Positions 7,534 to 40,124 of a stretch of 64,000 nucleotides of DNA are shown here, in pieces. Under the pieces are notes generated by a model. The model saw only the letters and a program-made list of their open reading frames with translations, was not told the DNA's origin and did not search any database. Each line of letters starts with the position of its first letter. Within the stretch, counting starts at the first letter, position 1. The stretch is taken from the sequence record OL615012; one strand, given 5' to 3'. Both the position numbers and the translations under genes were made by a program. The stretch comes from Shigella phage vB_SboM_Phaginator.

Positions 7534-7563
7534 ATAATACCACGGTTTGAACTTGTTGTAAAC
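7534..7563 (-). promoter_or_regulatory. Early (sigma70-type) promoter
   Basis: Minus strand GTTTACA - 17 bp - TGgTATTAT. Confidence 0.6.
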
Positions 7564-7624
7564 AACTTTGTGAAAAATATTTTAGGGAATGACAAGAAGG
7601 GAACGATAGCTTAGAATGGTAATA

Positions 7625-7657
7625 TACAGAATGTAAGAAAGAAAGGCCCAGAGGGCC
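7625..7657 (-). terminator. Rho-independent terminator after nrdH
   Basis: GGCCC-N3-GGGCC hairpin followed by U-rich tract on minus strand. Confidence 0.5.
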
Positions 7658-7661
7658 CGTC

Positions 7662-7970
7662 TTAGTCTTCTATGATATCTCTATTATATCCAAGTGAAAT
7701 GAGAGTTTCTTTGAAGTGTTTAATGTTCTTTTGTCTAGAATCATTAATGAAAATGACTGGATAACGAATGTTAAGAGATGTGAATCCAGCGCGTTTAGCA
7801 AGAGATACAATCAGCGGACGATCATACTCAATCTTACCATTATTTGTAAGAACTTTATAGAAAGTAAAAGGAGCATTAAGCTCCTTTAGAAGTTTTGTAA
7901 CTGATTGACATCCAGGACAACGACCTACTTCATCTGGAATTCCATAGACTTCAATCTTATTTTGTTTCAC
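7662..7970 (-). CDS. nrdH: Glutaredoxin-like protein NrdH
   Basis: 102 aa, CPGC redox motif, adjacent to nrdG-nrdD. Confidence 0.8.
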   Translation of the reverse strand: MKQNKIEVYGIPDEVGRCPGCQSVTKLLKELNAPFTFYKVLTNNGKIEYDRPLIVSLAKRAGFTSLNIRYPVIFINDSRQKNIKHFKETLISLGYNRDIIED

Positions 7971-7972
7971 AA

Positions 7973-8185
7973 CTATTCCTTACTAAGAGCAGCATTCAGC
8001 TTGTTAGTAATTTTATCCAGACGCTTATTGAACTCACTAGAAGATAAGCCCTTTTCTGGAGAAATTAAACTAATCACGAAAAATATAGCAATAAAAGGAA
8101 TAAGGAAAATAGCTCCAACTGCCATAAACAGAAAGAATGTTACGGTTGTAAGAAAATCAGCTAAACCTTTACGAAATTTATACAT
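7973..8185 (-). CDS. Hypothetical small membrane protein
   Basis: ORF track 70 aa with long hydrophobic segment FLTTVTFFLFMAVGAIFLIPFIAIFFVISLI. Confidence 0.5.
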   Translation of the reverse strand: MYKFRKGLADFLTTVTFFLFMAVGAIFLIPFIAIFFVISLISPEKGLSSSEFNKRLDKITNKLNAALSKE

Positions 8186-8299
8186 ATTTACCCTTAATTA
8201 ATTAACCAAGCATTGATAAGCACTAAACTATATTGTGAATAAAATTCTGGACCAAAATGAAAAATCATATCATTTATAGTATCCATAATGTAATTCAAT

Positions 8300-8770
8300 T
8301 TAATCATGTGTCCACACCCCATCGGTATTTGACCAAAGTCGCTGATTATCTGATCCTCGCCACAGCTTTTTAGTCGGAAGATTTTTCTCATACTTCCCAT
8401 CAATAATAACATCAACATATTTAAGCATTTCTAGTTGTTTAATATCTTCAAACTTATATCCTGTCCACAACCAAATGCTTTTATTGGGATAAAGATTTTT
8501 TACTGTTTGAACAATGCAATGAATAACATCTCGGTTATCAGGATAGAGAGGGTCACCTCCGGTTATAGTCAATCCTTCTATATAATCATTATTCAAACAT
8601 TCAATTAATTGTTCTAGTGTTTCACTAGTGAATGGAATACCATTTCTAGCATTCCATGTTGATTTATTATAACACCCTTCGCATTTATGCAAACAACCTG
8701 TAACGAAAAGAACGACCCTGCAACCAGGGCCATTCACAAAATCGCAAGGATAAAATCTATCATAATTCAT
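8300..8770 (-). CDS. nrdG: Anaerobic ribonucleotide reductase activating enzyme NrdG (radical SAM)
   Basis: 156 aa; Cys-rich N-terminus with CxxxCxxC-type cluster (CLHKCEGC); overlaps nrdD stop. Confidence 0.88.
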   Translation of the reverse strand: MNYDRFYPCDFVNGPGCRVVLFVTGCLHKCEGCYNKSTWNARNGIPFTSETLEQLIECLNNDYIEGLTITGGDPLYPDNRDVIHCIVQTVKNLYPNKSIWLWTGYKFEDIKQLEMLKYVDVIIDGKYEKNLPTKKLWRGSDNQRLWSNTDGVWTHD

Positions 8771-10584
8771 TGGTGTTTAACCCTATGCATGATTTCTTTA
8801 TTTTTACCGAGATTAAATCCGCGCTCGTTCGGATTTCCCAAATAACCGCATGTTCTTCTTATGGTATTCATCTTTTTAGGATCAGTTTCTCCACAAATAG
8901 AACAAACAAATCCGTTTTCAGTAGGAGTCATTTCATGGGTACTTCCACACGTAAAACATTTATCTACTGGCATGTTAACACCAAAATAATCTAAATGCTG
9001 TGCAGCATAATCCCATACGGCCTCAAGACCTTTTAGATTATTTTTCATATCAGGAAGTTCAACATAAGAAATGTGACCACCTGTCGCAATGAAATGATAT
9101 GGCGCTTCACGAGAAATCTTTTCAAACGGAGTAATATTTTCTTCTACTGAAACATGGAAACTATTAGTGTACCAGCCTTTATCAGTAACATCTTTTACGC
9201 TTCCATATTTTTCTGTATCAAGTTTACAGAAGCGATAACAAAGGTTTTCAGCAGGAGTAGAATACAAGCTAAAAGCAAATCCGGTTCTTTCAGTCCACTG
9301 TTTAAGACGAGCATTCATTTTAGTTAAAATTTCTTGTCCAATATCACGACCGACAAGAATATTCAATTCGTGAATACCAATGTATCCTAGAGACACTGAA
9401 CTTCTGCCATTTTTAAATAACTCAATTATATCGTCATCAGGTTTAAGACGAACCCCGAATGCACCTTCTTGGTAAAGAATAGGAGCAACAGTCGCTTTAA
9501 CTCCTTTTAAGGAACTAATTCTACACATCAAAGCTTCAAAACATAAATCCATTCGTTCATTGAATAATTCAACAAATTTCTGTTCATTGAATTGTGTTCC
9601 AATATAAGAATCTAATGCGATACGAGGAAGATTCAGTGTTACAACACCGAGATTATTACGTCCATCAAGAATTTCATTGCCAGTCGAATCTTTCCATACA
9701 CTCAAGAAACTGCGGCAACCCATTGGAGAAACAGGAATAGATGAACCAGTGATAGCTTTATTGTTCTTAGCTGAAATAATATCAGGATACATCCTTTTGC
9801 TTGCACACTCTAGAGCAAGCTGTTTAATATCATAGTTCGGATCGTCTTTGTAAAGATTAACACCTTCTTCAACGAACATAACAAGCTTAGGGAAAATAGG
9901 AGTTATCCCATCACGACCAAGACCTTTAATGCGATTTTTCAGAATTGCTTTCTGAATCATTCGTTCAGTCCAGTCAGTTCCCGTACCAAATGTAATTGTT
10001 ACAAAAGGCGTTTGTCCGTTTGAACTAAAGAGAGTATTTACTTCATATTCATAAGCTTGGAATGCATCGTATACGTCTTTTTCTGTTTTAGATTGAGCAT
10101 AATTCAACGCATCAGCGATTTGCCATTTTTCTGCATCCTCAATATGTTTTGCATAGGTGCGTTTAACATAAGGAGAAAGTACTTTATCTACATTCGCAAA
10201 AGTCGTTCCGCCATATTGATGGGAAGCAACTTGCGCAGTAATTTGTGCCATAATTGCAGTAGCAACGCCAATTGATTTAGGAGTTTCAATCTGCGCATTA
10301 CCAAGCTTAAATCCGTTCTCAAGCATTCCTTTTAAATCTACTAAACAGCAATTAGTAAATGGAAGAGCAGGGGAATAATCAATATCATGGAAATGAATAA
10401 TTCCGCTTTCATGCGCTTTCATAATAAAAGACGGGACCATATTTTTGGCAATGTGTTTAGACACAATACCAGCCATAAGGTCCCGTTGAGTTGGAAAAAC
10501 ACGAGAATCTTTATTAGCATTCTCGTTTAAAAGGTCTTTATTAGTTTTATGAATCAATCCTTCAATTTCTTTTTCAATTGTCAT
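8767..10584 (-). CDS. nrdD: Anaerobic (class III) ribonucleotide reductase NrdD, uninterrupted
   Basis: 605 aa; C-terminal zinc ribbon CFTCGSTH...CSICG and glycyl-radical motif RRTCGYLG; single continuous ORF. Confidence 0.92.
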   Translation of the reverse strand: MTIEKEIEGLIHKTNKDLLNENANKDSRVFPTQRDLMAGIVSKHIAKNMVPSFIMKAHESGIIHFHDIDYSPALPFTNCCLVDLKGMLENGFKLGNAQIETPKSIGVATAIMAQITAQVASHQYGGTTFANVDKVLSPYVKRTYAKHIEDAEKWQIADALNYAQSKTEKDVYDAFQAYEYEVNTLFSSNGQTPFVTITFGTGTDWTERMIQKAILKNRIKGLGRDGITPIFPKLVMFVEEGVNLYKDDPNYDIKQLALECASKRMYPDIISAKNNKAITGSSIPVSPMGCRSFLSVWKDSTGNEILDGRNNLGVVTLNLPRIALDSYIGTQFNEQKFVELFNERMDLCFEALMCRISSLKGVKATVAPILYQEGAFGVRLKPDDDIIELFKNGRSSVSLGYIGIHELNILVGRDIGQEILTKMNARLKQWTERTGFAFSLYSTPAENLCYRFCKLDTEKYGSVKDVTDKGWYTNSFHVSVEENITPFEKISREAPYHFIATGGHISYVELPDMKNNLKGLEAVWDYAAQHLDYFGVNMPVDKCFTCGSTHEMTPTENGFVCSICGETDPKKMNTIRRTCGYLGNPNERGFNLGKNKEIMHRVKHQ

Positions 10585-11581: not shown

Positions 11582-11720
11582 GTCCCATCTCCATATCAAT
11601 TAAGTCATTTATCGTTGGTTCATTATATACTGTTTCTTCATCAGTGTAAACCGGTTCTTCCGGCTCTGGCTCTACAGTTTCCCATCTAGCCGCCCACCAA
11701 GGTTTTATAGCGTAATCCAT
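11565..11720 (-). CDS. Hypothetical small acidic protein (51 aa)
   Basis: Manually read ORF MDYAIKPWWAARWETVEPEPEE...; stop overlaps pin-position start; below track length cut-off. Confidence 0.25.
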   Translation of the reverse strand: MDYAIKPWWAARWETVEPEPEEPVYTDEETVYNEPTINDLIDMEMGHDYSR

Positions 11721-14186: not shown

Positions 14187-15188
14187 TTACTTAATTAACT
14201 GTAAAGCTTGTTCAAGACGATCCAAGCGATTGACAGATTCTTCCCAAATCTTTTTAGCCTGCTCATATTCTTTCTGCGCTTTATTAGAAATTTCTAGAAC
14301 TTCTTTATAAGCTTTTTCTAGTGCAATAACTTCTGGACGAATTTCTGCCGGTTCAGGCGAATCATCAAGATTATCCATTAGTTCCTCAAGGGTAGTTTCT
14401 TCTTTAGGAGTATTCACAATTTCATCACATTTTTGTTGGTAAATTTCTTTACTAGTAGGTGAATAAGTACATTTCACTTCACGAAGACTAATTACAATTT
14501 TATATCCTTCCCAGCCGCATATATTCTTAAAAGGATATGTATGAATATTTTCTACTGTTTCCATACAAAGTAATGCGGTCTCTAATTGACGAGTTATAGT
14601 GCTAGCAATTGAGAAAAATTTATTAATGTTCTTTTGGTTAGTTTCTGGTGTAAAAAATCCATAATTCACAAAAATAGATACTTTATTTTTATCAAGTTCA
14701 TATTCTTTTATGATAATCATATCAGAAGCCAAAGGATGAATTTGACGATAATCGCCATAACATAATTTAGAAGCTGATTTTAGAATCTGTCCTTTGAAAA
14801 GTCTGAAATTACTAATCCAACGACGAGTAAAAATATTCTCAGGGTCTTCTTTATTATTAAGATGATAAGAATTAACATCACCGAACCAATTATATCCTAC
14901 TACATCTTTGGTTCGTTTAATTTCTTTCCCAAAATTACCAAGAATATCCCGATTAACCAAATATGAAAGAAGACGAGACTCTTTAAAGGTTTTCTTGATA
15001 ACATCTTTATCTACACGGCTAGAAATTTTACGAATTTCATGAATAAATTTAGTAGAAGAAACAATACTTGCATCAACACTATTGAGCCATTGATTGATAA
15101 TAGAAAGAACGATATTTTGACCAAACATCGGTATAGCTTTATCATCAATAACGCTATTGAATGATTTGATATATTCGTTACGAGTCAT
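14187..15188 (-). CDS. Hypothetical protein, variable N-domain plus C-terminal coiled coil (array member 2)
   Basis: Track ORF 14187..15239; start moved to MTRNEY (GAGGAG RBS upstream, and early promoter at 15217-15245 would otherwise lie inside the ORF). Confidence 0.6.
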   Translation of the reverse strand: MTRNEYIKSFNSVIDDKAIPMFGQNIVLSIINQWLNSVDASIVSSTKFIHEIRKISSRVDKDVIKKTFKESRLLSYLVNRDILGNFGKEIKRTKDVVGYNWFGDVNSYHLNNKEDPENIFTRRWISNFRLFKGQILKSASKLCYGDYRQIHPLASDMIIIKEYELDKNKVSIFVNYGFFTPETNQKNINKFFSIASTITRQLETALLCMETVENIHTYPFKNICGWEGYKIVISLREVKCTYSPTSKEIYQQKCDEIVNTPKEETTLEELMDNLDDSPEPAEIRPEVIALEKAYKEVLEISNKAQKEYEQAKKIWEESVNRLDRLEQALQLIK

Positions 15189-15216
15189 AATAATCTCCTC
15201 AGTAGAAAGTAAGAAC

Positions 15217-15245
15217 ATTATACCACATCCTTGTGGCAATGTAAA
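15217..15245 (-). promoter_or_regulatory. Early promoter
   Basis: Minus strand TTTACA - 17 bp - TGgTATAAT. Confidence 0.6.
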
Positions 15246-16265
15246 CTAGTTCAGTGCATTTAGTGCATTGTTCAGTTTAGAACGTTGCTTCGTAAGATTT
15301 TTGACTTTTTCTTGAGCTTTTTCCAACATCTTTTCAGCTTCTAGCACTTCATTGGTCGCTTTAACGAGTTCATCATCTACTGCCTTAAGAGACTTCTCAA
15401 TCGCGTCAGCGTGCCATTTTTCTACAGGTTTAAAATTTGAATTTTCAGTAGGAAGAAAATTCACTTTATTAAGTTTACATGCATCTATATTGCTTGAGCT
15501 ATACATCCAAAATTTAGGATCGTTTGATAAGTAATTGGATAAATTTAAGTTATCTTGCACTTCCTGCTTTTTCTCTTGCGGGACTTCGTCCTTTCTCAAA
15601 AAATCGTATTTAAATGAAACGATCATATCAAGTTCATATGATGTTGTATCTAACTTAAATCGTTCAAAACGAGGTAAAATCTTAGATTGAACAGCAGCAA
15701 CAACATCCATATACTTAAATGCTTCTGTCAACTGTGATTTAAGACATTCACAAATTGAAAGAGAATTTTTTGTATTAGGTTTAAAGCTAATTCGTGCAGT
15801 TCTATTATTTTCTTTTAACGGTCTTACTTCCATCTGAAGAGTATAACCATCAAATTTCAGGTTCTTTAAGTTAATATCAGAGCCTTTTAATCGACTAGCA
15901 GTAGACAAAATTTGCTTTAATTGTCTACGGAACAGAGCAATAAATCTCCATTCAATACGATAATGATTCGGATTGAAAAATCCAGATGATAAATCGACCT
16001 TACTTTGACCAACGCCTTGAACAAATAGAGGATTTTTATAATCAATAGTTTTACAGAAATCGGTGAGCTGCTCACGAGCAGTCATTTGTGTAATATATCC
16101 CGCTTTACTAAAATGACGTAACCATTCACTGCTATTCATATACTTAAAGTGAATATCACGATTAACTTTATCAGGGTCTAAATTATTTTGGCACAAAAAT
16201 GTCATAACATCACGAGTATAGCTGGCATTACGAACCATATCTTCAATTTGAGAACGAGTTTTCAT
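15246..16265 (-). CDS. Hypothetical protein, variable N-domain plus C-terminal coiled coil (array member 3)
   Basis: 339 aa; C-terminal heptad-rich tail. Confidence 0.6.
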   Translation of the reverse strand: MKTRSQIEDMVRNASYTRDVMTFLCQNNLDPDKVNRDIHFKYMNSSEWLRHFSKAGYITQMTAREQLTDFCKTIDYKNPLFVQGVGQSKVDLSSGFFNPNHYRIEWRFIALFRRQLKQILSTASRLKGSDINLKNLKFDGYTLQMEVRPLKENNRTARISFKPNTKNSLSICECLKSQLTEAFKYMDVVAAVQSKILPRFERFKLDTTSYELDMIVSFKYDFLRKDEVPQEKKQEVQDNLNLSNYLSNDPKFWMYSSSNIDACKLNKVNFLPTENSNFKPVEKWHADAIEKSLKAVDDELVKATNEVLEAEKMLEKAQEKVKNLTKQRSKLNNALNALN

Positions 16266-16273
16266 GGTGTTCC

Positions 16274-17161
16274 TTAAGATTTAAGTAAATCAATAATTTT
16301 AATTAACTTTTCACGCTCAGATTTAGCTTTACTACTCAATCCAGATAGTCTGAAAATTTCATCATCATATTGTTGAATAGAAATATTCAGCTCTTCAATT
16401 TGCTTATTAAAATAATCAATTTGTTCAGAATGTTTTTCGTTACTACGAACTGGTACAGGTTTTGTAGGCAATTTAGTTGAACTGGATTCATCCGGGCGAT
16501 AAATTAAAATACAACTTGAACCAATTGGACATTTTGCACCAGATGAATATTCTAATGTTCCAGCTTCTTTTAAAACTTCAAAAGCTAAACAGAGATGATG
16601 CCCCATATTAACATAATCTGTAGAGCGAGCTCTGATGTAATAATCATCTCCGCGAATACTAAATTTAAAGCATTTAAGGTCTTCTGTATTATTGGTCTTA
16701 AAAATCATTTGTTTATCTAGACCTTTAGCTAATCGAGCGCCTAATGCTAATAATCGTCGTTGATTTTCCCACAAATCCGCAATCATTTGGTCAAATGATA
16801 ATTTCGGCATTAGTCGACCATAAAGGTCGTATCCTTTATTATAATTGCGAAGGATTTCACTCGCGTTAATACGAGACAATGCTCCAATTTTATTAAGGGC
16901 TTTCATGATGCGATTAGATAAACCCATTCCAGACCCGTTTGTTCGCTGTAAATGTTTTTCTAATCCAAATCCAATATCAACTTTAAACTTATCTAAAATT
17001 TCTGCATGAACATCTCTGTCAATAACATTCAAATCCAAAGTTGGGTTAAATCTATGAAAAAATTTATCTGGCTCTCCACGACGAAGTACAGTCCATTCAT
17101 TCAATTTTTTATTAACTAAAGATTTAATTACTGCATTGACATTATTAATTACTACTGACAT
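16274..17161 (-). CDS. Hypothetical protein, variable N-domain plus C-terminal coiled coil (array member 4)
   Basis: Track ORF 16274..17182; ATG with GAGG RBS at 17161 (MSVVINN...). Confidence 0.6.
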   Translation of the reverse strand: MSVVINNVNAVIKSLVNKKLNEWTVLRRGEPDKFFHRFNPTLDLNVIDRDVHAEILDKFKVDIGFGLEKHLQRTNGSGMGLSNRIMKALNKIGALSRINASEILRNYNKGYDLYGRLMPKLSFDQMIADLWENQRRLLALGARLAKGLDKQMIFKTNNTEDLKCFKFSIRGDDYYIRARSTDYVNMGHHLCLAFEVLKEAGTLEYSSGAKCPIGSSCILIYRPDESSSTKLPTKPVPVRSNEKHSEQIDYFNKQIEELNISIQQYDDEIFRLSGLSSKAKSEREKLIKIIDLLKS

Positions 17162-18159: not shown

Positions 18160-18187
18160 TTTGTGTTCCTCCGTAGTTGATAGTTGT

Positions 18188-18216
18188 ATAGTACCACAGA
18201 GGAACAGTCTTGTAAA
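18188..18216 (-). promoter_or_regulatory. Early promoter (PeSL-type consensus)
   Basis: Minus strand GTTTACA - 17 bp - TGgTACTAT - ACAACTATCAACT. Confidence 0.65.
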
Positions 18217-18219
18217 CAA

Positions 18220-19626: not shown

Positions 19627-19655
19627 ATAGTACCATAAAGCTTTATGCTTGTAAA
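19627..19655 (-). promoter_or_regulatory. Early promoter (PeSL-type consensus)
   Basis: Minus strand GTTTACA - 17 bp - TGgTACTAT - ACAACTATCAACT; terminator hairpin immediately upstream. Confidence 0.65.
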
Positions 19656-19677
19656 CTGTTTTGTGAAAAATTTTTGA

Positions 19678-19705
19678 AATAAAAAAAGGGAGCCCGAAGG
19701 CTCCC
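19678..19705 (-). terminator. Rho-independent terminator after NTase gene
   Basis: Minus strand GGGAGCC-UUCG-GGCUCCC followed by UUUUUUU. Confidence 0.75.
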
Positions 19706-19707
19706 TA

Positions 19708-20721
19708 TCATTTATAATAACTTCGGTGGTTTTCAAGATAGACCTTCTCAAGGAAGTCATCCCAGAAACTCATGTCTACTTTTTGCTGCATACCGTTCTT
19801 AGAAGCTTCAGTAGATGCTGCTTCTACTTGATCGACCACATCTTCCAAAAACTCTTGAACCGTTTTAAATGGATGCTTACCCAACTTCACGTCAAGAATA
19901 AATGGAGCATCTTTGAGTGGATAAACCAAGTCACCAGTTTTGTAAATTTCCAATAGTTGGAGTCCACCACGGCAAGCATGACTCAGAGCTTTCCAGTCAA
20001 TACCTTCATTGGCTTCGGCCTTACGAGCACGTTCACCATATTCAGCATCTAATTTGTTCAGTGACTGCTTAAGCTCAATAAGAGAAAGCGTTGTCTGATA
20101 TTTACGACCCAACACAGTGTAGAACGTTTGTGGGCCTGTTTTCTCATGATTATGGAACACCCATTCACAGAATTCGTTTTCTGGAAGACGATGCTTAATA
20201 TCTTCAACTTTAGTGCGACGCTGCTTAATGGAACCGTCTTCTTGGTAATCAACCCATTGCTCGGGGATTTGATTAACTACTTTCAATACATCACGTAATG
20301 CAGCCAAACGAGAACCCTTGACACCGTATTTAGAAGCTTGCTTGCGGACATATCCTAAATAGGATTTCATGTTAGTCGTATAAAAACGAGAACGGTTGTC
20401 TTGAATAAACTTCCACACATCAGGCAAATCAGATTTAACCACTAGTTCAGGTGGAGTGTGAAGCATATCCAATGCTACAGTTTCACCATCTGCTGCTAAT
20501 TTAAAGAAATATTTAAGACTGTATAGTTCATGGTCAATATCATCTTTAGTGTTTTTAGATGATGTGTTGTTAGTGTTTTTACTCATGTGCTCTTTAACGT
20601 TTCCGATAAGAATATCACGAGCAGGAGGAACAAAGATTTCTTTAAAATCTACATCAGATTCTGGAGTAGAAGTTCCATAAAGATGACTACCAAAATAGCT
20701 TTTCATTACTGTTTTCATCAT
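19708..20721 (-). CDS. Pol-beta superfamily nucleotidyltransferase-fold protein, function unknown
   Basis: 337 aa; N-terminal GS-x9-DVD motif (FGSHLYGTSTPESDVDF) with a downstream acidic residue (DMLH). Confidence 0.65.
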   Translation of the reverse strand: MMKTVMKSYFGSHLYGTSTPESDVDFKEIFVPPARDILIGNVKEHMSKNTNNTSSKNTKDDIDHELYSLKYFFKLAADGETVALDMLHTPPELVVKSDLPDVWKFIQDNRSRFYTTNMKSYLGYVRKQASKYGVKGSRLAALRDVLKVVNQIPEQWVDYQEDGSIKQRRTKVEDIKHRLPENEFCEWVFHNHEKTGPQTFYTVLGRKYQTTLSLIELKQSLNKLDAEYGERARKAEANEGIDWKALSHACRGGLQLLEIYKTGDLVYPLKDAPFILDVKLGKHPFKTVQEFLEDVVDQVEAASTEASKNGMQQKVDMSFWDDFLEKVYLENHRSYYK

Positions 20722-21179: not shown

Positions 21180-21181
21180 AA

Positions 21182-22255: not shown

Positions 22256-22387
22256 TGTATACTCCTCTGAATCATATCAATAATGTTGTTCACCAGATTA
22301 TAAGTAAACATTGGGTAATTATATTGAATCATCACATACACAACAAACAAAATTTTCATTCTCTTCTCCTTGACAGTTGACAAGATT

Positions 22388-22416
22388 ACTATACCATAAC
22401 CTTGCCAACTTGTAAA
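22388..22416 (-). promoter_or_regulatory. Early promoter
   Basis: Minus strand GTTTACA - 17 bp - TGgTATAGT. Confidence 0.6.
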
Positions 22417-22419
22417 CCA

Positions 22420-23171: not shown

Positions 23172-23199
23172 GATGTTCTCCTCTTTATCCGATGGTTGT

Positions 23200-23228
23200 A
23201 TAGTACCACGGCTCAAACAGAAAGTAAA
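23200..23228 (-). promoter_or_regulatory. Early promoter (PeSL-type consensus)
   Basis: Minus strand GTTTACT - 17 bp - TGgTACTAT - ACAACCATC; terminator hairpin upstream. Confidence 0.6.
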
Positions 23229-23238
23229 CCGGTAAAAT

Positions 23239-23262
23239 GAAAAAAGTCTCCCGAAGGAGACT
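23239..23262 (-). terminator. Rho-independent terminator
   Basis: Minus strand AGUCUCC-UUCG-GGAGACU followed by UUUUUU. Confidence 0.7.
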
Positions 23263-27371: not shown

Positions 27372-27398
27372 GTTATTCTCCTCTTAACTGATAGAAAA

Positions 27399-27427
27399 AT
27401 TATACCACAGTCAAGAGGAAAAGTAAA
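27399..27427 (-). promoter_or_regulatory. Early promoter upstream of regB
   Basis: Minus strand GTTTACT - 17 bp - TGgTATAAT. Confidence 0.6.
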
Positions 27428-27430
27428 CAA

Positions 27431-29593: not shown

Positions 29594-30172
29594 TTAGGAA
29601 TTACGGGCTGCATTAGCAACGGCGTAAGCGTACTGGACATTAGCGTCTTTAAACGTACCTTTAGAGGTATCTATTTCTGCCTTAAAGCCGCCTTTAGCCA
29701 TAACATCGGCAAATTCTTTACGGAAAGCCATTGCATCAAGACCTTTCCATGATGATTTATGCTTGGCAAATTCAAGACCAGCGTAGTTGACAGCCTTAGC
29801 TAATTTATTATCAATAACCCATTTACCGGCTTTAGGCACAAACTTCGGGCCTTTTTGTTTAGAGAACAGTTTTAAATTCCAGCGACGAAGGTCACTGTCG
29901 GCTTTAACAAAAGCTGCGTCTAAGTTACTAGCAACAACATCTTCAATATGAGCAAATTTAAGTCCGTCAACTTCAATATTTAGATCGTTACGCCAGCGAA
30001 GTCCTTCCCAAGCGAAGGCTTTAAAGTCGGAAGCCTTTGTAGCTAAGTACCGTTCAATAGGAGCTGTTTTAGGGTCAAAGCCGTTTCCCGATCGGTAGGT
30101 CCACTCATCTTTATTAATGCCTTTGGCCTTTACTATAGAAGCTTCGGCAATAAATTCTTGATAGGTTTTCAT
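29594..30172 (-). CDS. ipIII: Internal head protein with capsid targeting sequence (IPIII-like)
   Basis: 192 aa; N-terminus MKTYQEFIAEA, the T4 internal-protein capsid targeting sequence with LxE-type protease site; early promoter upstream. Confidence 0.65.
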   Translation of the reverse strand: MKTYQEFIAEASIVKAKGINKDEWTYRSGNGFDPKTAPIERYLATKASDFKAFAWEGLRWRNDLNIEVDGLKFAHIEDVVASNLDAAFVKADSDLRRWNLKLFSKQKGPKFVPKAGKWVIDNKLAKAVNYAGLEFAKHKSSWKGLDAMAFRKEFADVMAKGGFKAEIDTSKGTFKDANVQYAYAVANAARNS

Positions 30173-30200: not shown

Positions 30201-30229
30201 ATTATACCATATTAATACTTAAGCGTAAA
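30201..30229 (-). promoter_or_regulatory. Early promoter upstream of ipIII-like gene
   Basis: Minus strand GTTTACG - 17 bp - TGgTATAAT. Confidence 0.6.
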
Positions 30230-30233
30230 CCGT

Positions 30234-30494
30234 TTAAGCTTTACCGCCAGAAATAATTCCGAAGTTGTTAAAATCATATCCAATATCGTCAACATCTACT
30301 TTAGGACTTGCTACAGCATAAGCAATTTCACTACGTTTTGCACAGGTGTTGATTTCTTTACCATCGCCACCTAAGAAAGAATACCCATTACGTTTTAATG
30401 AGCCAAAGTCTTCCGCATCACCAATGAAAGCTTTAACTTTAAATTTAGAACCTTTGGCATCTGCTTCAACGATAAATTCTTGATACATTTTCAT
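30234..30494 (-). CDS. Internal head protein with capsid targeting sequence (IPII-position)
   Basis: 86 aa; N-terminus MKMYQEFIVEA. Confidence 0.6.
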   Translation of the reverse strand: MKMYQEFIVEADAKGSKFKVKAFIGDAEDFGSLKRNGYSFLGGDGKEINTCAKRSEIAYAVASPKVDVDDIGYDFNNFGIISGGKA

Positions 30495-30631
30495 TTTTCC
30501 TTAGTAAATTGATTTACCAAAGTATTTGTACCAAGTCGGACGTTGATCAATTTTTTCATCTAAGCGTGCTTGATTTATCGCAATGGACGCTTCGGACGGG
30601 TCATAATTTCCTCCAAGTAGTTGATGAATGT

Positions 30632-30660
30632 ATAGTATCAAAACCCTTGGAGGAAGTAAA
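30632..30660 (-). promoter_or_regulatory. Early promoter upstream of ipII-position gene
   Basis: Minus strand GTTTACT - 17 bp - TGaTACTAT. Confidence 0.55.
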
Positions 30661-30662
30661 CA

Positions 30663-31465
<803 letters not shown>

Positions 31466-33721: not shown

Positions 33722-33737
33722 AGGGGCCGAAGCCCCT
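33722..33737 (-). other. Intercistronic RNA hairpin with UUCG tetraloop
   Basis: Minus strand AGGGGC-UUCG-GCCCCU just after stop of 33743..34336; no clear U-run. Confidence 0.4.
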
Positions 33738-34336: not shown

Positions 34337-34393
34337 AGTATTTCCTTAGATTGATACAATTAGATAATATCACGTTTTTAATAGATTGTAAAC

Positions 34394-34729: not shown

Positions 34730-34754
34730 AATGTTCTCCTCAAGCTACAGGCTC

Positions 34755-34783
34755 ATAATATCTCAATCATGAGCCTGTGTAAA
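34755..34783 (-). promoter_or_regulatory. Early promoter overlapping a 9-bp inverted repeat
   Basis: Minus strand GTTTACA - 17 bp - TATTAT; spacer contains CAGGCTCAT...ATGAGCCTG hairpin. Confidence 0.55.
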
Positions 34784-34784
34784 C

Positions 34785-35091: not shown

Positions 35092-35120
35092 ATAGTACCA
35101 TGGAAGAACAGGGATGTAAA
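35092..35120 (-). promoter_or_regulatory. Early promoter (PeSL-type consensus)
   Basis: Minus strand GTTTACA - 17 bp - TGgTACTAT - ACAACTATCAACT. Confidence 0.65.
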
Positions 35121-35251
35121 CAGTTTTGTGAAAAAATTTTTAAAAAGTTTTGGGGAATTCTAGGGCGGGAGGGGCAATTAAAAGATAGGATAATATATTA
35201 TAAAGGGTAGAAACTAAATGATGTCTAGAGAGGCCTGGAAAGGCCTAGATA

Positions 35252-35278
35252 CCAAAAAGCCCTATCATTTAGATAGGG
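35252..35278 (-). terminator. Rho-independent terminator after IP-like gene 35289..35855
   Basis: Minus strand CCCTATC-N5-GATAGGG hairpin followed by CUUUUUGG; second palindromic hairpin AGGCC...GGCCT at 35231-35246. Confidence 0.55.
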
Positions 35279-35288
35279 ATTTAAAATT

Positions 35289-35855
35289 TTATTTACCCAG
35301 TTTAGTTATTATAGCTTCGGCAGCAGCTTTTAGCTTAGATGCAGTGTTAATACGATTTTTAATTTCAGTATACGCATCGCCAAGAACATCAAGGCTATCT
35401 GAATAAACACTTACACTATTGCGTTCGCTATTTGAAATAGAACCTTTAGTTTTACGATCAAAATCGGTATACACGTCTTGAAGATCGCGTGCTGCCTTCT
35501 TTGCATCATCCAATGCATCAAGAGCTTTATTCAAAGCATTAACATATTTTTTAGTGTCAAACATATTCTTAGAAATTTTGACGGGTGCGCGTTCAGGAGT
35601 AGCTAAGGCAGATTTAGGAAGAACCTGTTTGCCAGATGCCAGTTTCTTAGAAATTTTAAAAAACGCTTTATTGAAATTATTTTCTTGACTCATCGTAAAA
35701 GAACTATTATCAATGTTATACATTTCAATAGCTTTAGCTTTCCACTTAAGAAAATCGCCACGGTCTTTTGGATCCAAGTGGAAGAATACTTTAGTAAGAT
35801 CTGCTTCAGATGGTAATTTTGCTGCTTCGGTTAAAAATTCGGCGTAGGTTTTCAT
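35289..35855 (-). CDS. Internal-protein-like protein with capsid targeting sequence
   Basis: 188 aa; N-terminus MKTYAEFLTEA; terminator hairpins downstream. Confidence 0.6.
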   Translation of the reverse strand: MKTYAEFLTEAAKLPSEADLTKVFFHLDPKDRGDFLKWKAKAIEMYNIDNSSFTMSQENNFNKAFFKISKKLASGKQVLPKSALATPERAPVKISKNMFDTKKYVNALNKALDALDDAKKAARDLQDVYTDFDRKTKGSISNSERNSVSVYSDSLDVLGDAYTEIKNRINTASKLKAAAEAIITKLGK

Positions 35856-35936
35856 TTAAAATCCTTGAAATAATTTATTGGTTATTAATTATTTATCACG
35901 TTGTTATATGTAACAGCATTCTCCGAGCGATTCAAA

Positions 35937-35966
35937 CTAAAAAGCCCCAACCTTTCTGTCGGGGCT
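35937..35966 (-). terminator. Rho-independent terminator (repeat copy A)
   Basis: Minus strand AGCCCCGAC-AGAAAGG-UUGGGGCU followed by UUUUUAG. Confidence 0.65.
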
Positions 35967-35971
35967 AAAAT
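35937..35971 (-). repeat. 31-bp direct repeat copy A (terminator-containing)
   Basis: ctaaaaagccccaacctttcTgtcggggctaa; matches copy B except one base. Confidence 0.8.
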
Positions 35972-35972
35972 G

Positions 35973-36446
35973 TTATTTAATTTGCTTAGCAGACCAAATG
36001 CGGTCTTTGATAATTTTTTGGATGTCTTCAACATATTCAAGAGAGTGAACATGTGGGTTATCTTTGAAACTATAAGCACGAGCTAGCTTTTGGCCTTCGG
36101 TTTTGATTACTAAAAGCTCTTTAAGGATAGCTTCATATTTGGAGATAATTCCTTTAACAATATTTTTCTCTTGTGCGACTTTAGGATCTGCTTTAGGAGC
36201 AGGTTTACCTGAAGCCTTTGCAAAAGCAGCTCCAGTAGCAACTAAACTTTTCCAGGCCATACTAACTGCATTCCCTGTAAATCCTTCCGCTTTCATATCG
36301 CGAGCAAATTGGAATCGTGATTCATCGGAAGCATCTTTATAGGAATATTTACCCGCGGCAATGGCAGCTTTTGCAACAGCTTGAATTTCGGTGCTAGATG
36401 CTTCATTTAACACCGCTTCATTTAAAAATTGAGCATATGATTTCAT
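35973..36446 (-). CDS. Internal-protein-like protein with capsid targeting sequence
   Basis: 157 aa; N-terminus MKSYAQFLNEAVLNEA; TATAAATA late promoter upstream; flanked by a 31-bp direct repeat. Confidence 0.6.
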   Translation of the reverse strand: MKSYAQFLNEAVLNEASSTEIQAVAKAAIAAGKYSYKDASDESRFQFARDMKAEGFTGNAVSMAWKSLVATGAAFAKASGKPAPKADPKVAQEKNIVKGIISKYEAILKELLVIKTEGQKLARAYSFKDNPHVHSLEYVEDIQKIIKDRIWSAKQIK

Positions 36447-36482
36447 CTTATTTCCTGTTTTAATTCGTGGTTTTAATATACT

Positions 36483-36490
36483 TATTTATA
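36483..36490 (-). promoter_or_regulatory. Late promoter (TATAAATA) upstream of IP-like gene 35973..36446
   Basis: Minus-strand TATAAATA immediately after terminator hairpin; RBS AGGAAA and ATG follow. Confidence 0.6.
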
Positions 36491-36520
36491 CTAAAAAGCC
36501 CCAACCTTTCGGTCGGGGCT
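36491..36520 (-). terminator. Rho-independent terminator at end of tRNA/stable RNA cluster (repeat copy B)
   Basis: Minus strand AGCCCCGAC-CGAAAGG-UUGGGGCU followed by UUUUUAG, then TATAAATA. Confidence 0.65.
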
Positions 36521-36836: not shown

Positions 36837-36912
36837 TGGTCGAGGCAGTAGGGATCGAACCTACGACCTAGGACTTAGAAGGTCCTTGCTCTTCCTTCTG
36901 AGCTATGCCTCG
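36837..36912 (-). tRNA. tRNA-Arg (anticodon TCT)
   Basis: Manual cloverleaf: acceptor CGAGGCA/TGCCTCG, anticodon loop CTTCTAA, T-arm GTAGG-TTCGATC-CCTAC, encoded CCA. Confidence 0.8.
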
Positions 36913-36916
36913 TATT

Positions 36917-36991
36917 TGGCGGACGTGATAGGATTCGAACCTATAACCAATCGCTTAACAGGCGATCGCTCTGCCATTGAGCTACACATCC
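36917..36991 (-). tRNA. tRNA-Asn (anticodon GTT)
   Basis: Manual cloverleaf: acceptor GGATGTG/CACGTCC (one G-U), anticodon stem ATCGC/GCGAT, loop CTGTTAA, T-arm ATAGG-TTCGAAT-CCTAT, encoded CCA. Confidence 0.7.
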
Positions 36992-36995
36992 AAAT

Positions 36996-37082
36996 TGGTG
37001 GGGAGTGATGGAGTCGAACCACCCGAGTCGCAATGACAATGGATTTACAGTCCACACCGCTACCTCTACGGGATAACTCCCC
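36996..37082 (-). tRNA. tRNA-Tyr (anticodon GTA), long variable arm
   Basis: Manual cloverleaf: acceptor GGGGAGT/ACTCCCC, anticodon loop CTGTAAA, variable stem-loop, T-arm GGTGG-TTCGACT-CCATC, encoded CCA. Confidence 0.7.
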
Positions 37083-37094
37083 TAATTCATAATT

Positions 37095-37169
37095 TGGTGG
37101 CCCTGGGTGGAATTGAACCACCATCTGGCGATTATGAGTCGCTTGCTTGAACCTTCCAGCTACAGGGCC
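37095..37169 (-). tRNA. tRNA with CAT anticodon (Ile2-type or elongator Met)
   Basis: Manual cloverleaf: acceptor GGCCCTG/CAGGGCC, anticodon loop CTCATAA, T-arm GGTGG-TTCAATT-CCACC, encoded CCA. Confidence 0.7.
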
Positions 37170-37170
37170 T

Positions 37171-37246
37171 TGGTGCTGATTGACGGAATCGAACCGCCGA
37201 CCTTCTCATTACAAGTGAGTTGCTCTACCTACTGAGCTAAATCAGC
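37171..37246 (-). tRNA. tRNA-Thr (anticodon TGT)
   Basis: Manual cloverleaf: acceptor GCTGATT/AATCAGC, D-arm GCTC...GAGC, anticodon loop CTTGTAA, T-arm GGCGG-TTCGATT-CCGTC, encoded CCA. Confidence 0.8.
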
Positions 37247-37251
37247 AAAAC

Positions 37252-37341
37252 TGGCGGAGGCGATAGGATTTGAACCTATGAGTCGCCGGAGCGACTGCCG
37301 GTTTTCAAGACCGGTGCATTAAACCACTCTGCCACGCCTCC
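37252..37341 (-). tRNA. tRNA-Ser (anticodon TGA), long variable arm
   Basis: Manual cloverleaf: acceptor GGAGGCG/CGCCTCC, anticodon stem CCGGT/ACCGG, loop CTTGAAA, T-arm ATAGG-TTCAAAT-CCTAT, encoded CCA. Confidence 0.8.
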
Positions 37342-37345
37342 AAAT

Positions 37346-37353
37346 ATTTATAT
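37346..37353 (-). promoter_or_regulatory. Late promoter (TATAAATA) abutting tRNA-Ser
   Basis: Minus-strand TATAAATA; predicted start falls at or next to the tRNA-Ser 5-prime end (37341); overlaps segB stop. Confidence 0.5.
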
Positions 37354-37998
37354 ATTGTTAATTTGATTTAGAATTCTTTTTGCTTGAGTATGACTTACGC
37401 CAATATGCTTAGCATATTTAGACAATTCGCCACGTTTAGAAAAATCATATAATTTAGAAATTTCTATTCTTCTTTTTCTTTCATCCGCAGAAACTTTTGC
37501 TTCGTTTGCTTTTGCTATTTTACGTTTAGCTTCTTGAGAATGAGTTTTACCAGCAAAGCCATTCTTCATTAATCCATTTGAAGACCATCCTTTTAATTTT
37601 CCGTTAGAATGTGCCTTTTTAACACCCAATGAAATTAATTCGCGTTGCTGATCTGTCATAGGATAATTATTTATATGATCCCATCCACCTTCACCTCCAA
37701 GTTTTAAATTATACACATCTGGTCTATTTAAAAACTCTTCTGTGACAATATTTTTCTCGGCTTCAAGCATAGATTCTTTATCGTCAAAATACTCTAATAT
37801 TTCTTTAGAAAAATTTTCTATACCATATTTATCTTGGGCTCTTTTTAATAATTTACCAGAACCCATATATCCATCATCTAAATTTTCGGTAGAATGCACA
37901 CCAATATAAATTTTATTATTAATTTTATTTGTTATTTTATAAAGATAAAAATGCATATCAGTCCCTAATAAAGAACTGAGCGTCTCACGACGAGTCAT
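37348..37998 (-). CDS. segB: GIY-YIG homing endonuclease (SegB-like) embedded in the tRNA cluster
   Basis: 216 aa; N-terminal FYLYKITNKINNKIYIGVHS (GIY-YIG-type motif); sits between two tRNA subclusters as segB does in T4. Confidence 0.8.
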   Translation of the reverse strand: MTRRETLSSLLGTDMHFYLYKITNKINNKIYIGVHSTENLDDGYMGSGKLLKRAQDKYGIENFSKEILEYFDDKESMLEAEKNIVTEEFLNRPDVYNLKLGGEGGWDHINNYPMTDQQRELISLGVKKAHSNGKLKGWSSNGLMKNGFAGKTHSQEAKRKIAKANEAKVSADERKRRIEISKLYDFSKRGELSKYAKHIGVSHTQAKRILNQINNI

Positions 37999-38002
37999 AA
38001 AT

Positions 38003-38076
<74 letters not shown>

Positions 38077-38081
38077 AAATT

Positions 38082-38168
38082 TGGTGCGAGAAGTGGGACT
38101 CGAACCCACAAGGAAATCATTCCGCAGCATTTTAAGTGCTGTGCCTTTACCAATTTGACCATTCTCGC
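38082..38168 (-). tRNA. tRNA-Leu (anticodon TAA), long variable arm
   Basis: Manual cloverleaf: acceptor GCGAGAA/TTCTCGC, anticodon stem CAGCA/TGCTG, loop CTTAAAA, T-arm GTGGG-TTCGAGT-CCCAC, encoded CCA. Confidence 0.8.
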
Positions 38169-38169
38169 G

Positions 38170-38242
38170 CTGGGAATAAAGGACTCGAACCTTTGCATCC
38201 TGGAATCAAAATCCAGTGCCTTACCAACTTGGCTAATTCCCA
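38170..38242 (-). tRNA. tRNA-Gln (anticodon TTG), CCA not encoded
   Basis: Manual cloverleaf: acceptor TGGGAAT/ATTCCCA, anticodon stem CTGGA/TCCAG, loop TTTTGAT, T-arm AAAGG-TTCGAGT-CCTTT; 1-nt spacer to tRNA-Leu (dimeric precursor as in T4 Gln-Leu). Confidence 0.8.
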
Positions 38243-38311
38243 ATTATTAACAAAGGCTCTCAAGCAAGAACCCTTGATGATAGAGGGTATTAATCAGTGC
38301 GGTATGAGTTA

Positions 38312-38338
38312 ATAATAACAAATAATTCTTAAAGCAAA
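38312..38338 (-). promoter_or_regulatory. Putative MotA-dependent middle promoter upstream of the tRNA cluster
   Basis: Minus strand TTTGCTTTA box - 12 nt - TATTAT, about 70 nt upstream of tRNA-Gln. Confidence 0.3.
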
Positions 38339-38844: not shown

Positions 38845-38847
38845 TTT

Positions 38848-39138
38848 TCACCACGCTGCATTAATATACGTTTTCTGAATACATTCAAGACCCAAAGGAT
38901 TCTTGAAAATATCATATTCAAGAGGACCTTTTTCTGTTTCAATAAAGAAATCAAAATTTACTGTATTAAATTTATGGTCTTCCTTCACTAATTTAACTTG
39001 AGAAGATGAACGGTCAACATAAACCTTTTCAACTTCAAAACATGTTAAAACACCATAATCATCAATCAAGGCTTTAGCCGCGTCTTGATCATATTTATAT
39101 CCATTTTCAATTGATGATACTTTAGCATAAAGAATCAT
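38848..39138 (-). CDS. Hypothetical protein
   Basis: ORF track 96 aa. Confidence 0.5.
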   Translation of the reverse strand: MILYAKVSSIENGYKYDQDAAKALIDDYGVLTCFEVEKVYVDRSSSQVKLVKEDHKFNTVNFDFFIETEKGPLEYDIFKNPLGLECIQKTYINAAW

Positions 39139-39141
39139 TAT

Positions 39142-39531
39142 TTACCCTTCATCAACAATAGTATGAGTGTGGGCATTTACAATTTGCCACCAATCAAAGC
39201 GATTAGAACCATACATTGGTTTGTTCTCATTTTCTTTGATAAGGTCACGGAGTTCATCTTCGGTAGCGGCTTTCGCGATTAAATCAGCATATCCACCGCG
39301 AGGATAATAATTATCACCTGCAAAAAGTAAAAAGTTTGCTTTAATATTATTAAACTTTTCAAGAGTAATAACTGTTCCACCAGGTTGAACAATCTCTACA
39401 TATTTATATCCTAATTTTTGAGCAGCATCTACTGCTTCAAGCAGGGTATCATGAGCCCATCCAACTTGGCAATCTGGCTTTTCAGATGGATTAGCCTGAT
39501 AATCCGCGTACACTTTATACATTCTATTCAC
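39142..39531 (-). CDS. Hypothetical protein
   Basis: ORF track 129 aa. Confidence 0.5.
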   Translation of the reverse strand: MNRMYKVYADYQANPSEKPDCQVGWAHDTLLEAVDAAQKLGYKYVEIVQPGGTVITLEKFNNIKANFLLFAGDNYYPRGGYADLIAKAATEDELRDLIKENENKPMYGSNRFDWWQIVNAHTHTIVDEG

Positions 39532-39766
39532 CTTTAGAAATTTTATCCATAACGATAGCGATTAAACCAATTAAAAATGCTACTACAAGCGAAAACACAT
39601 TTTCTGCTGTAGTTAATAATCCGCATATAAATCCAACAAACATTGAAAAACTAAAAGCGGAAGCAGAAATTGCAATAGCAACATTTCGAATTAATTCACA
39701 GCGTTTCATTTTATTCTCCAATTTCACATTTGCTTTGATAGAACTACTATAACATAGTTCTATCAA
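39524..39766 (-). CDS. Hypothetical small membrane protein
   Basis: 80 aa with hydrophobic core segments. Confidence 0.45.
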   Translation of the reverse strand: MIELCYSSSIKANVKLENKMKRCELIRNVAIAISASAFSFSMFVGFICGLLTTAENVFSLVVAFLIGLIAIVMDKISKGE

Positions 39767-39777
39767 GTTGTAAACTA

Positions 39778-40065
39778 TTATAGAAGATTTTTTGCAATAA
39801 TTTTAAGCTGAGCTACTGAAATATGCTTGGCTTTAAACAAAGCAGTTTCTTCAGCAGGAGAGATAACGATTGTAGCACCATCCTTTTTAGCAGACCACCC
39901 ATCACCTAGGTAAACAGTACCTTTGATTTCTTCGCCATCAACCAGACTAATCATTGGTTTACCTTCTCGTCCTTTATTTGCTTTAATAACTTCAGAAGTA
40001 AGAGTAGCTTCGGTAATAGTAGAAACCGGGGTAGTTGTAGAAGTAAATTCTTTGAAAGTTTTCAT
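39778..40065 (-). CDS. ipI: Internal head protein at the ipI locus (capsid-targeted; IPI-type proteins inhibit GmrSD-like restriction)
   Basis: 95 aa; N-terminus MKTFKEFTS... with ITE/TSE sites; located just upstream of 57B as ipI is in T4; early promoter at 40096-40124. Confidence 0.6.
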   Translation of the reverse strand: MKTFKEFTSTTTPVSTITEATLTSEVIKANKGREGKPMISLVDGEEIKGTVYLGDGWSAKKDGATIVISPAEETALFKAKHISVAQLKIIAKNLL

Positions 40066-40095
40066 TTTATTTTCCTAATTAATTTTGATGAGATA

Positions 40096-40124
40096 ATAGT
40101 ATCACTACCTCATCAACGTGTAAA
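40096..40124 (-). promoter_or_regulatory. Early promoter upstream of ipI
   Basis: Minus strand GTTTACA - 17 bp - TGaTACTAT. Confidence 0.6.

Follow-up and report, generated by a model that had tools for sequence, protein, structure and literature searches.

The stretch examined here (hereafter the window) comprises 64,000 nucleotides of the Shigella phage vB_SboM_Phaginator genome (record OL615012), and our subject is a family of predicted early promoters (Pe), many of them joined to a stem-loop, in its accessory gene region. The whole 64-kb stretch is that of a Tequatrovirus (T4-like phage), and 7-kb and 25-kb stretches of it match hundreds of Tequatrovirus genomes at 95–99% identity. Positions 1–45174 are collinear with 33.5–79 kb of T4 (NC_000866) through the gene series 46, 47, 55, nrdD, nrdC, rI, tk, regB, ipIII, e, the tRNA cluster, ipI, 57B and 53/5. 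The minus strand carries the genes up to ~43.5 kb, and this part of the window, which is covered by ~450 Tequatrovirus genomes, corresponds to what in T4 is classically known as the early accessory (“hyperplastic”) region. The T4 records NC_000866 and AF158101 hold no promoter features, the supplements of PMC6024815 do not give Pe positions, and Rfam returns only tRNAs over 1–44 kb, with no hairpin of the promoter set corresponding to a curated RNA family.

The pattern GTTTACW-N17-TAYWAT has 13 exact matches in the window, 100% of them on the minus strand and always with a 17-bp spacer, where 0.05 matches are expected by chance and a count of 13 was reached in 0 of 100 shuffles. The preliminary description had listed twelve minus-strand sites with this exact spacer in 7534–40124, and the motif scan returns exactly that list; the thirteenth strict site (7089–7118) lies just beyond the range. 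With one mismatch allowed there are 21 matches vs. 2.1 expected. Near-strict members with full promoter context are found at 22388, 30201 and 39746 (one mismatch) and at 2102 (two mismatches), so that at least 17 sites, 13 of them strict and 4 near-strict, belong to the promoter family (sites are named by their lower coordinate; Table 1). Five further one-mismatch sites, at 22280 (inside mobD.2, with CATTAT as its −10), 32457, 41574, 61534 and 15779 (plus strand), were not accepted as promoters, being without TGn, an AT-rich upstream region, or a following Shine-Dalgarno sequence (SD) and ATG. A chance origin of the family from AT-rich sequence, in favor of which one could cite a generic sigma-70 consensus scan that finds no excess (102 vs. 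86 in shuffles) and is useless for this promoter family, is refuted by the excess of matches with its complete strand bias, by the motif recurring at orthologous T4 positions, and by 31 further T4-like loci (IMG/VR) in which all strict matches fall on the coding strand and none opposite.

The elements around the two boxes are likewise recurrent. TGn is present at 10 of the 13 strict sites and at 14 of 17 overall (it is absent at 7089, 11622 and 34755), the AT content upstream of the sites is 0.74 compared with a background of 0.65 (p = 4e-4; the exception is 11622, at 0.40), and an UP-like block, TTTTTCACAAA, is common to four sites. A start codon with a preceding SD lies 25–43 nt past the −10 box at 15/17 sites; at 7089 the distance is 61 nt, and 2102 is intragenic. 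The earlier statement that four sites (18188, 19627, 23200 and 35092) also share a downstream block proved somewhat too broad, since ACAACTATCAACT occurs exactly at three positions only (18175, 19614 and 35079, belonging to 18188, 19627 and 35092), while 23200 carries ACAACCATCGGAT in its place, with 9/13 positions identical. A shorter YATCAA element is found at about +8 in ~10 of the 17 sites. It occupies +8 to +13, at or just past the predicted transcription start (e.g., 18175–18187, 30619–30631 and 40083–40090), and forms the core of the ACAACTATCAACT block, and the 3' arms of class A, described below, end in it; with +1 being the A seven bases past the −10 box, many early RNAs would start with AUCAA.

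Comparison with T4 identifies what these sites are likely to be. T4 orthologues exist for 15/17 sites, and when +1 is placed seven bases past the −10 box, the orthologues of 2102, 7089 and 22388 predict starts at 35,662, 41,225 and 57,954, which are, exact to the base, the published map units of Pe35.3, Pe40.4 and Pe57954 (Patterson-West et al., 2018). In that study Pe35.3 and Pe40.4 were assayed by primer extension, the latter both in vivo and in vitro. All other sites were assigned to mapped T4 early promoters by position only, and on this basis 7534, 23200, 34755 and 35092 are probably Pe41, Pe57.9, Pe69.4 and Pe69.9. The regB gene has been described as having “a typical early promoter,” and T4 and the window have identical sequences in its spacer and −10 region. 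The architecture of T4 early promoters, UP/−35/TGn/−10, is summarized by Hinton (2010; PMC2988021), in whose review the original T4 Pe studies (Liebig & Rueger, 1989; Wilkens & Rueger, 1994/1996) are covered. Relative to these T4 promoters the sites show the same AT-rich UP-like region, −35 GTTTAC, 17-bp spacer, TGn, −10 and genome positions. Nothing essential differs, although promoter 30632 (denV) and some cassette arrangements are not found in T4 at the same place, and the T4 promoter upstream of trna.4 has a different spacer from that of promoter 39746.

Several sites do fall in regions that in T4 contain middle promoters as well, which might suggest MotA/AsiA-dependent middle or late promoters in place of early ones. 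We consider this very improbable: in T4 middle promoters a MotA box replaces the −35, whereas here the −35 GTTTAC stands 17 bp from the −10 at every site and TGCTT near −30 is found at 0/17, and three of the orthologues have been published as Pe. With anatomy, T4 orthology and three base-exact published positions in agreement, the early-promoter reading of the preliminary description holds up well, and we put the probability that the sites are sigma-70 early promoters of a T4-like phage, approximately two thirds of them being composite promoter/stem-loop units, at about 0.88.

Stem-loops accompany ~12 of the 17 sites, and none stands out at 2102, 7089, 11622, 30201 or 34364. Four promoters (7534, 19627, 23200 and 35092) have terminator-like hairpins upstream. 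The hairpin at 7644–7658 follows the nrdH stop and lies ~80 nt upstream of promoter 7534, and that at 19687–19706 lies directly past the stop codon of the NTase gene (nrdC.11), where it constitutes the upstream half of a promoter/stem-loop unit. Two sites had been said to follow a UUCG-loop terminator, and both hairpins (19687–19706 and 23245–23262) are indeed present with their T-runs; T tails suggestive of termination are seen only on these two and on hairpin 7644–7658. Additional UUCG-tetraloop hairpins without an adjoining early promoter occur at 4310–4329 (minus strand, after a-gt) and 33722–33737 (minus strand, between e.6 and e.5). UUCG hairpins are thus also found in promoter-free intergenic gaps and are therefore not specific to promoter units. 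Tuerk and coworkers reportedly noted C(UUCG)G tetraloop hairpins in T4 intercistronic regions in 1988; both upstream terminators here have C(UUCG)G loops, and we know of no difference between the two.

The commonest stem-loop is of another kind, namely an inverted repeat that straddles the −10 box such that the spacer pairs with the leader. This arrangement is found at 8/17 promoters with folding energies of −13 to −21 kcal/mol, compared to 3.9% of background windows (p = 9e-8). In a set of 49 non-redundant promoters (~40 loci), a strong straddling hairpin is present in 35%, vs. 4.5% of chimeras in which the spacer of one promoter was joined to the leader of another (p = 2e-11). At least nine unrelated arm sequences retain complementarity in the same register. 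The spacer-leader complementarity is statistically solid and co-varies across phages. At promoter 34755, for example, a C-G pair has changed to T-A in a compensatory manner relative to T4 and IME537, and in the 5' arm at promoter 22388 the window has two A-to-G changes relative to T4, which leave the pairing intact only as G-U. We found no explicit test or description of spacer/SD co-variation in T4 early promoters in the searchable literature, and older T4 papers may contain one.

The straddling hairpins fall into two registers, which recur in other phages. In class A the arms are ~10 bp long and the center of the stem coincides with the upstream edge of the −10 box; the 3' arm ends around +1, often with ...ATCAA. 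In class B (promoters 18188, 23200, 27399 of regB, and 30632) an anti-SD (CCTC) located right after the −35 pairs with the SD, the 5' arm lying in the spacer and the 3' arm containing GGAGG or AAGAGGAG. Thus the spacer of promoter 18188, TGTTCCTCTGTGG, pairs with the SD-containing leader ACGGAGGAACA, that of the regB promoter, TTTTCCTCTTGACTG, with CAGTTAAGAGGAG, and that of promoter 30632, TTCCTCCAAGG, with CTTGGAGGAA.

Table 1. Predicted early promoters of the family and associated stem-loops in the window (Pe, predicted early promoter; strict, exact match to the motif).
Feature	Position	Strand	Remarks
Pe in gene 47	2102..2130	-	TTTTACA-N17-TGTTATAGT; T4 Pe35.3 orthologue
Pe in 3' end of 55.5, upstream of 55.4	7089..7118	-	Strict, no TGn; T4 Pe40.4 orthologue
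Pe upstream of 55.6	7534..7563	-	UP-like block TTTTTCACAAAGTT (repeat family D3); probably T4 “Pe41”
GC-rich hairpin	7644..7658	-	GGGCCC-TCT-GGGCC, T-rich tail, −15.3 kcal/mol
Promoter-like strict site in 49.1	11622..11651	-	40 nt before pin start codon; conserved in T4
nrdC.4 Pe	15217..15246	-	Strict; hairpin within spacer
In-spacer hairpin of promoter 15217	15221-15238	-	TGCCACA-AGGA-TGTGGTA
Straddling repeat, promoter 18188, class B	18164..18206	-	−20.2 kcal/mol, 13 straddling pairs
nrdC.8 Pe	18188..18217	-	Strict; followed by ACAACTATCAACT
nrdC.10 Pe	19627..19656	-	Strict; UP-like block and ACAACTATCAACT; insertion hot spot
Predicted UUCG-tetraloop terminator	19687..19706	-	AGGGAGCC-TTCG-GGCTCCCT + T7, ahead of promoter 19627
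Inverted repeat, promoter 22388, class A	22375..22410	-	15-bp arms centered on −10 box, −19.0 kcal/mol
Pe upstream of mobD.2	22388..22417	-	−10 TATAGT; T4 “Pe57954” orthologue
Weaker straddling repeat, promoter 23200	23178..23223	-	−13.0 kcal/mol, 15 pairs; leader including SD AAGAGGA
mobD.5 Pe	23200..23229	-	Strict; probably T4 Pe57.9
Predicted UUCG-tetraloop terminator	23245..23262	-	AGTCTCC-TTCG-GGAGACT + T6; 16 nt upstream of promoter 23200 −35
Straddling repeat, regB promoter, class B	27376..27422	-	−21.4 kcal/mol, 18 pairs
regB Pe	27399..27428	-	Strict
ipIII Pe	30201..30230	-	GTTTACG-N17-TGGTATAAT
Straddling repeat, promoter 30632, class B	30608..30655	-	−18.9 kcal/mol, 17 pairs
Pe of denV (pseudogene here)	30632..30661	-	Strict
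e.6 Pe	34364..34393	-	Strict; left boundary of e.7 cassette swap, breakpoint 34355
Inverted repeat, promoter 34755, class A	34747..34778	-	ACAGGCTCATGA...TCATGAGCCTGT, −19.9 kcal/mol
e.7 Pe	34755..34784	-	Strict; right boundary of e.7 cassette swap
e.8 Pe	35092..35121	-	Strict; UP-like block and ACAACTATCAACT; probably T4 Pe69.9
Hairpin with CTTTTT	35260..35278	-	140 nt upstream of promoter 35092
Inverted repeat, promoter 39746, class A	39735..39766	-	TTGATAGAACTAT...TAGTTCTATCAA, −16.2 kcal/mol
Pe upstream of trna.4	39746..39775	-	Left boundary of variable ipI cassette, breakpoint 39719
Inverted repeat, promoter 40096, class A	40085..40116	-	TTGATGAGGTAG...TATCTCATCAA, −15.5 kcal/mol
ipI Pe	40096..40125	-	Strict; UP-like block

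Combinations of this type are already on record. Arbiol et al. (2010; PMC2839356) described PeSL (promoter-early stem-loop units), cassettes of an early promoter plus a stem-loop in hyperplastic regions, in which the stem-loop may sit upstream, in the spacer, or over the −35 or −10 box, and Comeau et al. (2014; PMC4122927) gave the promoter consensus of the PST/T4 PeSL as TTTACW-N17-TAYWAT. The motif family and the PeSL-like units are therefore already published, consensus included, and because that consensus is the motif of the preliminary description, its likening of the sites to PeSL is a correct rediscovery, made from the two upstream UUCG terminators, the only stem-loops it had noticed. 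The units here share with PeSL the composite of promoter, stem-loop, SD and ATG, the consensus, the hyperplastic setting (all sites lie in the accessory region from gene 47 to 57B, collinear with T4 35–74 kb), and cassettes between two units that differ among close relatives. They differ in that the 2014 legend puts the PST stem-loops just upstream of the promoter, whereas the commonest one here straddles the −10, a position described in 2010 for RB49/phi1, and in that the excess of indels at promoter junctions is not significant in our sample of ten genomes (see below). Promoter-overlapping stem-loops are called terminators or attenuators in both PeSL papers (PMC2839356, PMC4122927).

A second precedent is the promoter-in-hairpin RNA control of the T4 genes e, soc, 49 and I-TevI, in which long upstream transcripts fold and are untranslated and transcripts from the internal promoter are without the 5' arm (Uzan & Miller, 2010; PMC3014915). 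The class B units 18188, 23200, 27399 and 30632 share this topology, with the promoter in the hairpin and the SD in the 3' arm. In e, soc, 49 and I-TevI the embedded promoter is late and delays expression; the embedded promoter of class B is predicted to be early, and so would separate the expression of a gene from that of neighboring early units rather than time it.

The reading that these features suggest may be outlined as follows. The promoters are compact units of ~90 nt, in which an AT-rich UP-like region precedes the −35 GTTTAC(A/T), a 17-bp spacer, usually TGn, and the −10 TAYWAT, with a ~20-nt leader connecting the latter to an SD and ATG. Such units would be fired by unmodified host RNA polymerase immediately after infection and would drive leftward transcription of the accessory genes from gene 47 to gene 57B. 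In one form of the unit a GC-rich upstream hairpin, twice with a UUCG loop and U-run, would end the preceding transcription unit. In the other, the inverted repeat straddling the −10 box makes the spacer complementary to the leader, and since RNA started at the promoter is without the 5' arm, only read-through RNA could fold the hairpin. Where the 3' arm is the SD, as in class B, translation of read-through copies should thus be blocked or attenuated, leaving the gene to be expressed from its own promoter, on which we infer that its translation depends. Extending this into a general insulation, in which many T4-type early promoters have a spacer that co-evolves with their own leader, forming a hairpin foldable only by read-through RNA and making promoter-ORF cassettes portable, is a tentative suggestion that we hold to be doubtful as it stands.

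The straddling repeats might instead act in DNA, as cruciform or hairpin-prone sites that aid promoter melting or as targets of structure-specific nucleases, such as endonuclease VII, that start recombination. Class A speaks for this, being centered on the −10 and lying almost wholly upstream of the predicted start, with no U-run and no overlap with an SD. The breakpoints 34747, 34785 and 39719 fall within or at the edge of straddling repeats, and Arbiol et al. speculated on a stem-loop-binding recombination protein (PMC2839356). Nevertheless we consider it unlikely. The coincidence of class B 3' arms with the SD points to RNA, the A-to-G changes at promoter 22388 leave pairs that are possible in RNA but not in DNA, and the control of e, soc, 49 and I-TevI is an established RNA-level example (PMC3014915).

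Whether the units also mark the boundaries of exchangeable modules was assessed from 68 breakpoint clusters collected by aligning the window to ten close relatives (T4, UFV13, 235Ecol030PP, Manna, IME537, Pu-Krd-SF2 and four IMG/VR genomes). At promoter 19627, the NTase/nrdC.10 junction, the relatives carry at least four different insertion or replacement alleles with joints in the ACAACTATCAACT block or the UUCG hairpin; the inserts each carry a second promoter with a different spacer, and the Manna replacement starts at terminator 19687–19706. The e.7 cassette is swapped in Pu-Krd-SF2 exactly from the −10 end of promoter 34364 to the −35 of 34755, and UFV13 has a 235-bp promoter-bearing insertion at 34755. 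The ipI cassette (promoters 39746–40096; its right boundary is at 40031–40044, within codons of the capsid-targeting sequence, CTS) is replaced by two internal protein (IP) genes with their own promoters in IME537 and Pu-Krd-SF2. Just downstream of promoter 30201 (ipIII), UFV13 has an extra IP gene, the joint of which lies in the shared SD and CTS codons and not in the promoter. Hairpin 35260–35278 is the left breakpoint of a 1.2–1.5 kb window-specific segment. Inserts at promoter junctions have a promoter copy on either side and 13–40-bp duplicated joints, none of the ~40 insertions elsewhere carries a promoter, and the top dispersed repeat families are the promoter core, the UP block, the IP CTS and a terminator. 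Of the modules that had been named as bounded by these units, the NTase/nrdC.10 junction and the IP loci therefore stand, joined by e.7, and regB does not, as there is no indel at its promoter in any of the ten relatives; the same is true of promoters 2102, 7089, 7534, 18188, 22388 and 23200.

These cases would be explained if the units, as dispersed direct repeats of 40–80 bp, are places where the T4 recombination system sometimes crosses over, with repeated terminators and the conserved IP-gene 5' ends serving as further crossover points and promoter-plus-ORF cassettes gained, lost or swapped as a result. Mini-circles with chimeric PeSL joints have been shown experimentally in RB49/phi1 (Arbiol et al., 2010; PMC2839356). 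A uniform-position null would appear to support a general rule, as 12/68 breakpoints fall near promoters vs. 6.6% (p = 0.0016). We rejected this null as wrong, since coding sequence makes up 87% of the region and the indels are located where genes meet; the tests made at the level of gene junctions are not significant.

Several observations weigh against the sites being early promoters organized into composite, exchangeable units. Promoter activity in this phage is predicted from its sequence and from T4. Site 11622, with neither TGn nor an AT-rich upstream region, is the weakest member of the family and its predicted activity is uncertain; that it is conserved could reflect the 49.1 coding sequence. 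The class A hairpins lack a U-run and leave the SD free, and they may act in attenuation, in RNA processing or stability, or at the DNA level. Promoter junctions are hit in 9/17 cases vs. 37/85 for other gene junctions (p = 0.33), or 9/17 vs. 26/85 when the ends of homing endonucleases are left out (odds ratio 2.6, p = 0.07), and 8/17 promoter junctions are free of indels in the ten relatives. A breakpoint beside promoter 30632 (30596–30608), at first counted as promoter-associated, is an internal deletion of denV. As a general rule, then, the module-boundary claim is at best a modest tendency in this sample of ten.

It is a real possibility, though not the one we favor, that these are ordinary early promoters only, which resemble boundaries merely by sitting between genes, where alone indels are tolerated, with many of the indels made by endonucleases and the shuffling not promoter-mediated. 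Besides the junction tests, approximately a quarter of the breakpoint clusters are the ends of homing-endonuclease or intron insertions (mobB, mobC, I-TevII, mobD, segB and others), none of them at a promoter. Swaps at 49.2/49.3, tk.1–tk.3 and e.2 have no promoter at either end, and Comeau et al. (2014; PMC4122927) themselves put the g49.2/.3 exchange down to non-PeSL mechanisms. What this account leaves unexplained are the two promoter copies and duplicated joints around inserts, the exact replacement of e.7 between promoters 34364 and 34755, the at least four independent alleles at promoter 19627, and the experimental mini-circles of RB49/phi1.

The IP loci offer further traces of exchange. 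According to Repoila et al. (1994), as cited in PMC2839356 and PMC4122927, T-even IP genes are variable and each lies behind an early promoter with an AT-rich stem-loop; as far as that cited account goes, ipI, ipIII and the extra IP-like genes of the window behave likewise, and differ in that some crossovers fall outside the promoter, in the SD and CTS codons that the genes share. CTS (MKTYQEFIAEA-like) gene starts are found on the minus strand at 30141–30172, 30463–30494, 30913–30944, 35824–35855 and 40034–40065, corresponding to five genes: ipIII, two extra IP-like ORFs flanking a denV remnant, ORF 35289–35855, and ipI. These 32-nt CTS-encoding 5' ends make up a dispersed repeat family, which has served for crossover in at least one relative. 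The denV gene (endonuclease V) is a pseudogene at 30501–30641 (minus strand), with an internal deletion of ~310 bp past codon 3 and a frameshift (MTR followed by PKRPLR and a stop), and its C-terminal 30-odd codons remain out of frame. It is intact at the same position in UFV13 and Pu-Krd-SF2, and T4 denV lies elsewhere, between vs.8 and ipII.

Other repeats in the window are associated with deletions as well. Near-identical terminator hairpins at 35943–35966 and 36497–36520 (minus strand; AGCCCCGAC(A/C)GAAAGGTTGGGGCT followed by TTTT) flank ORF 35973–36446, and in Pu-Krd-SF2 precisely the segment enclosed by the two hairpins is missing and the joint overlaps by 39 bp, the outcome that recombination between repeated terminator hairpins would give. 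T4 and Manna are without the whole of 35278–36488. Manna is also without 1.9 kb at 14438–16355 (minus strand), with a 21-bp overlapping joint inside nrdC.4 and nrdC.5, which suggests recombination between these similar-sized neighbors to give a fused gene.

There are further differences from T4. The tRNA cluster (36837–38242, minus strand) has nine tRNAs (Arg, Asn, Tyr, Met, Thr, Ser, Gly, Leu and Gln), with Asn and Tyr gained and Pro absent relative to T4. A segB-like ORF (37348–37998), one 275-bp piece of which is 99% identical to T4 segB, lies between tRNA-Ser and tRNA-Gly; in T4 it follows tRNA-Arg. T4 mobB, mobC, mobD and the nrdD intron with I-TevII are absent (window 4250–4275, 8750–8770, 10046–10049 and 20722–21685), and two unrelated ORFs, 20718–21179 and 21182–21703, occupy the position of mobD. 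An extra 89-codon ORF (5832–6101, minus strand; interval 5826–6087) lies between genes 55 and 55.1; it is found in neither T4 nor Pu-Krd-SF2, and neither of its ends has a promoter or hairpin.

Taken as a whole, the analysis rediscovers two features already known from T4-type phages, namely their very strong early promoters and the promoter/stem-loop cassettes termed PeSL, and for this reason its value lies mainly in annotation, with 17 predicted early transcription starts for a genome whose relatives' records are without promoter annotation. The junction-level control weakens the popular claim that such units mark or drive module exchange, since all indels fall between genes. The co-variation of spacer and leader is the only part that may add something, as it gives a concrete idea of how a cassette might be insulated from read-through, and if this reading is true the joint transfer of promoter and leader would be accounted for as well.

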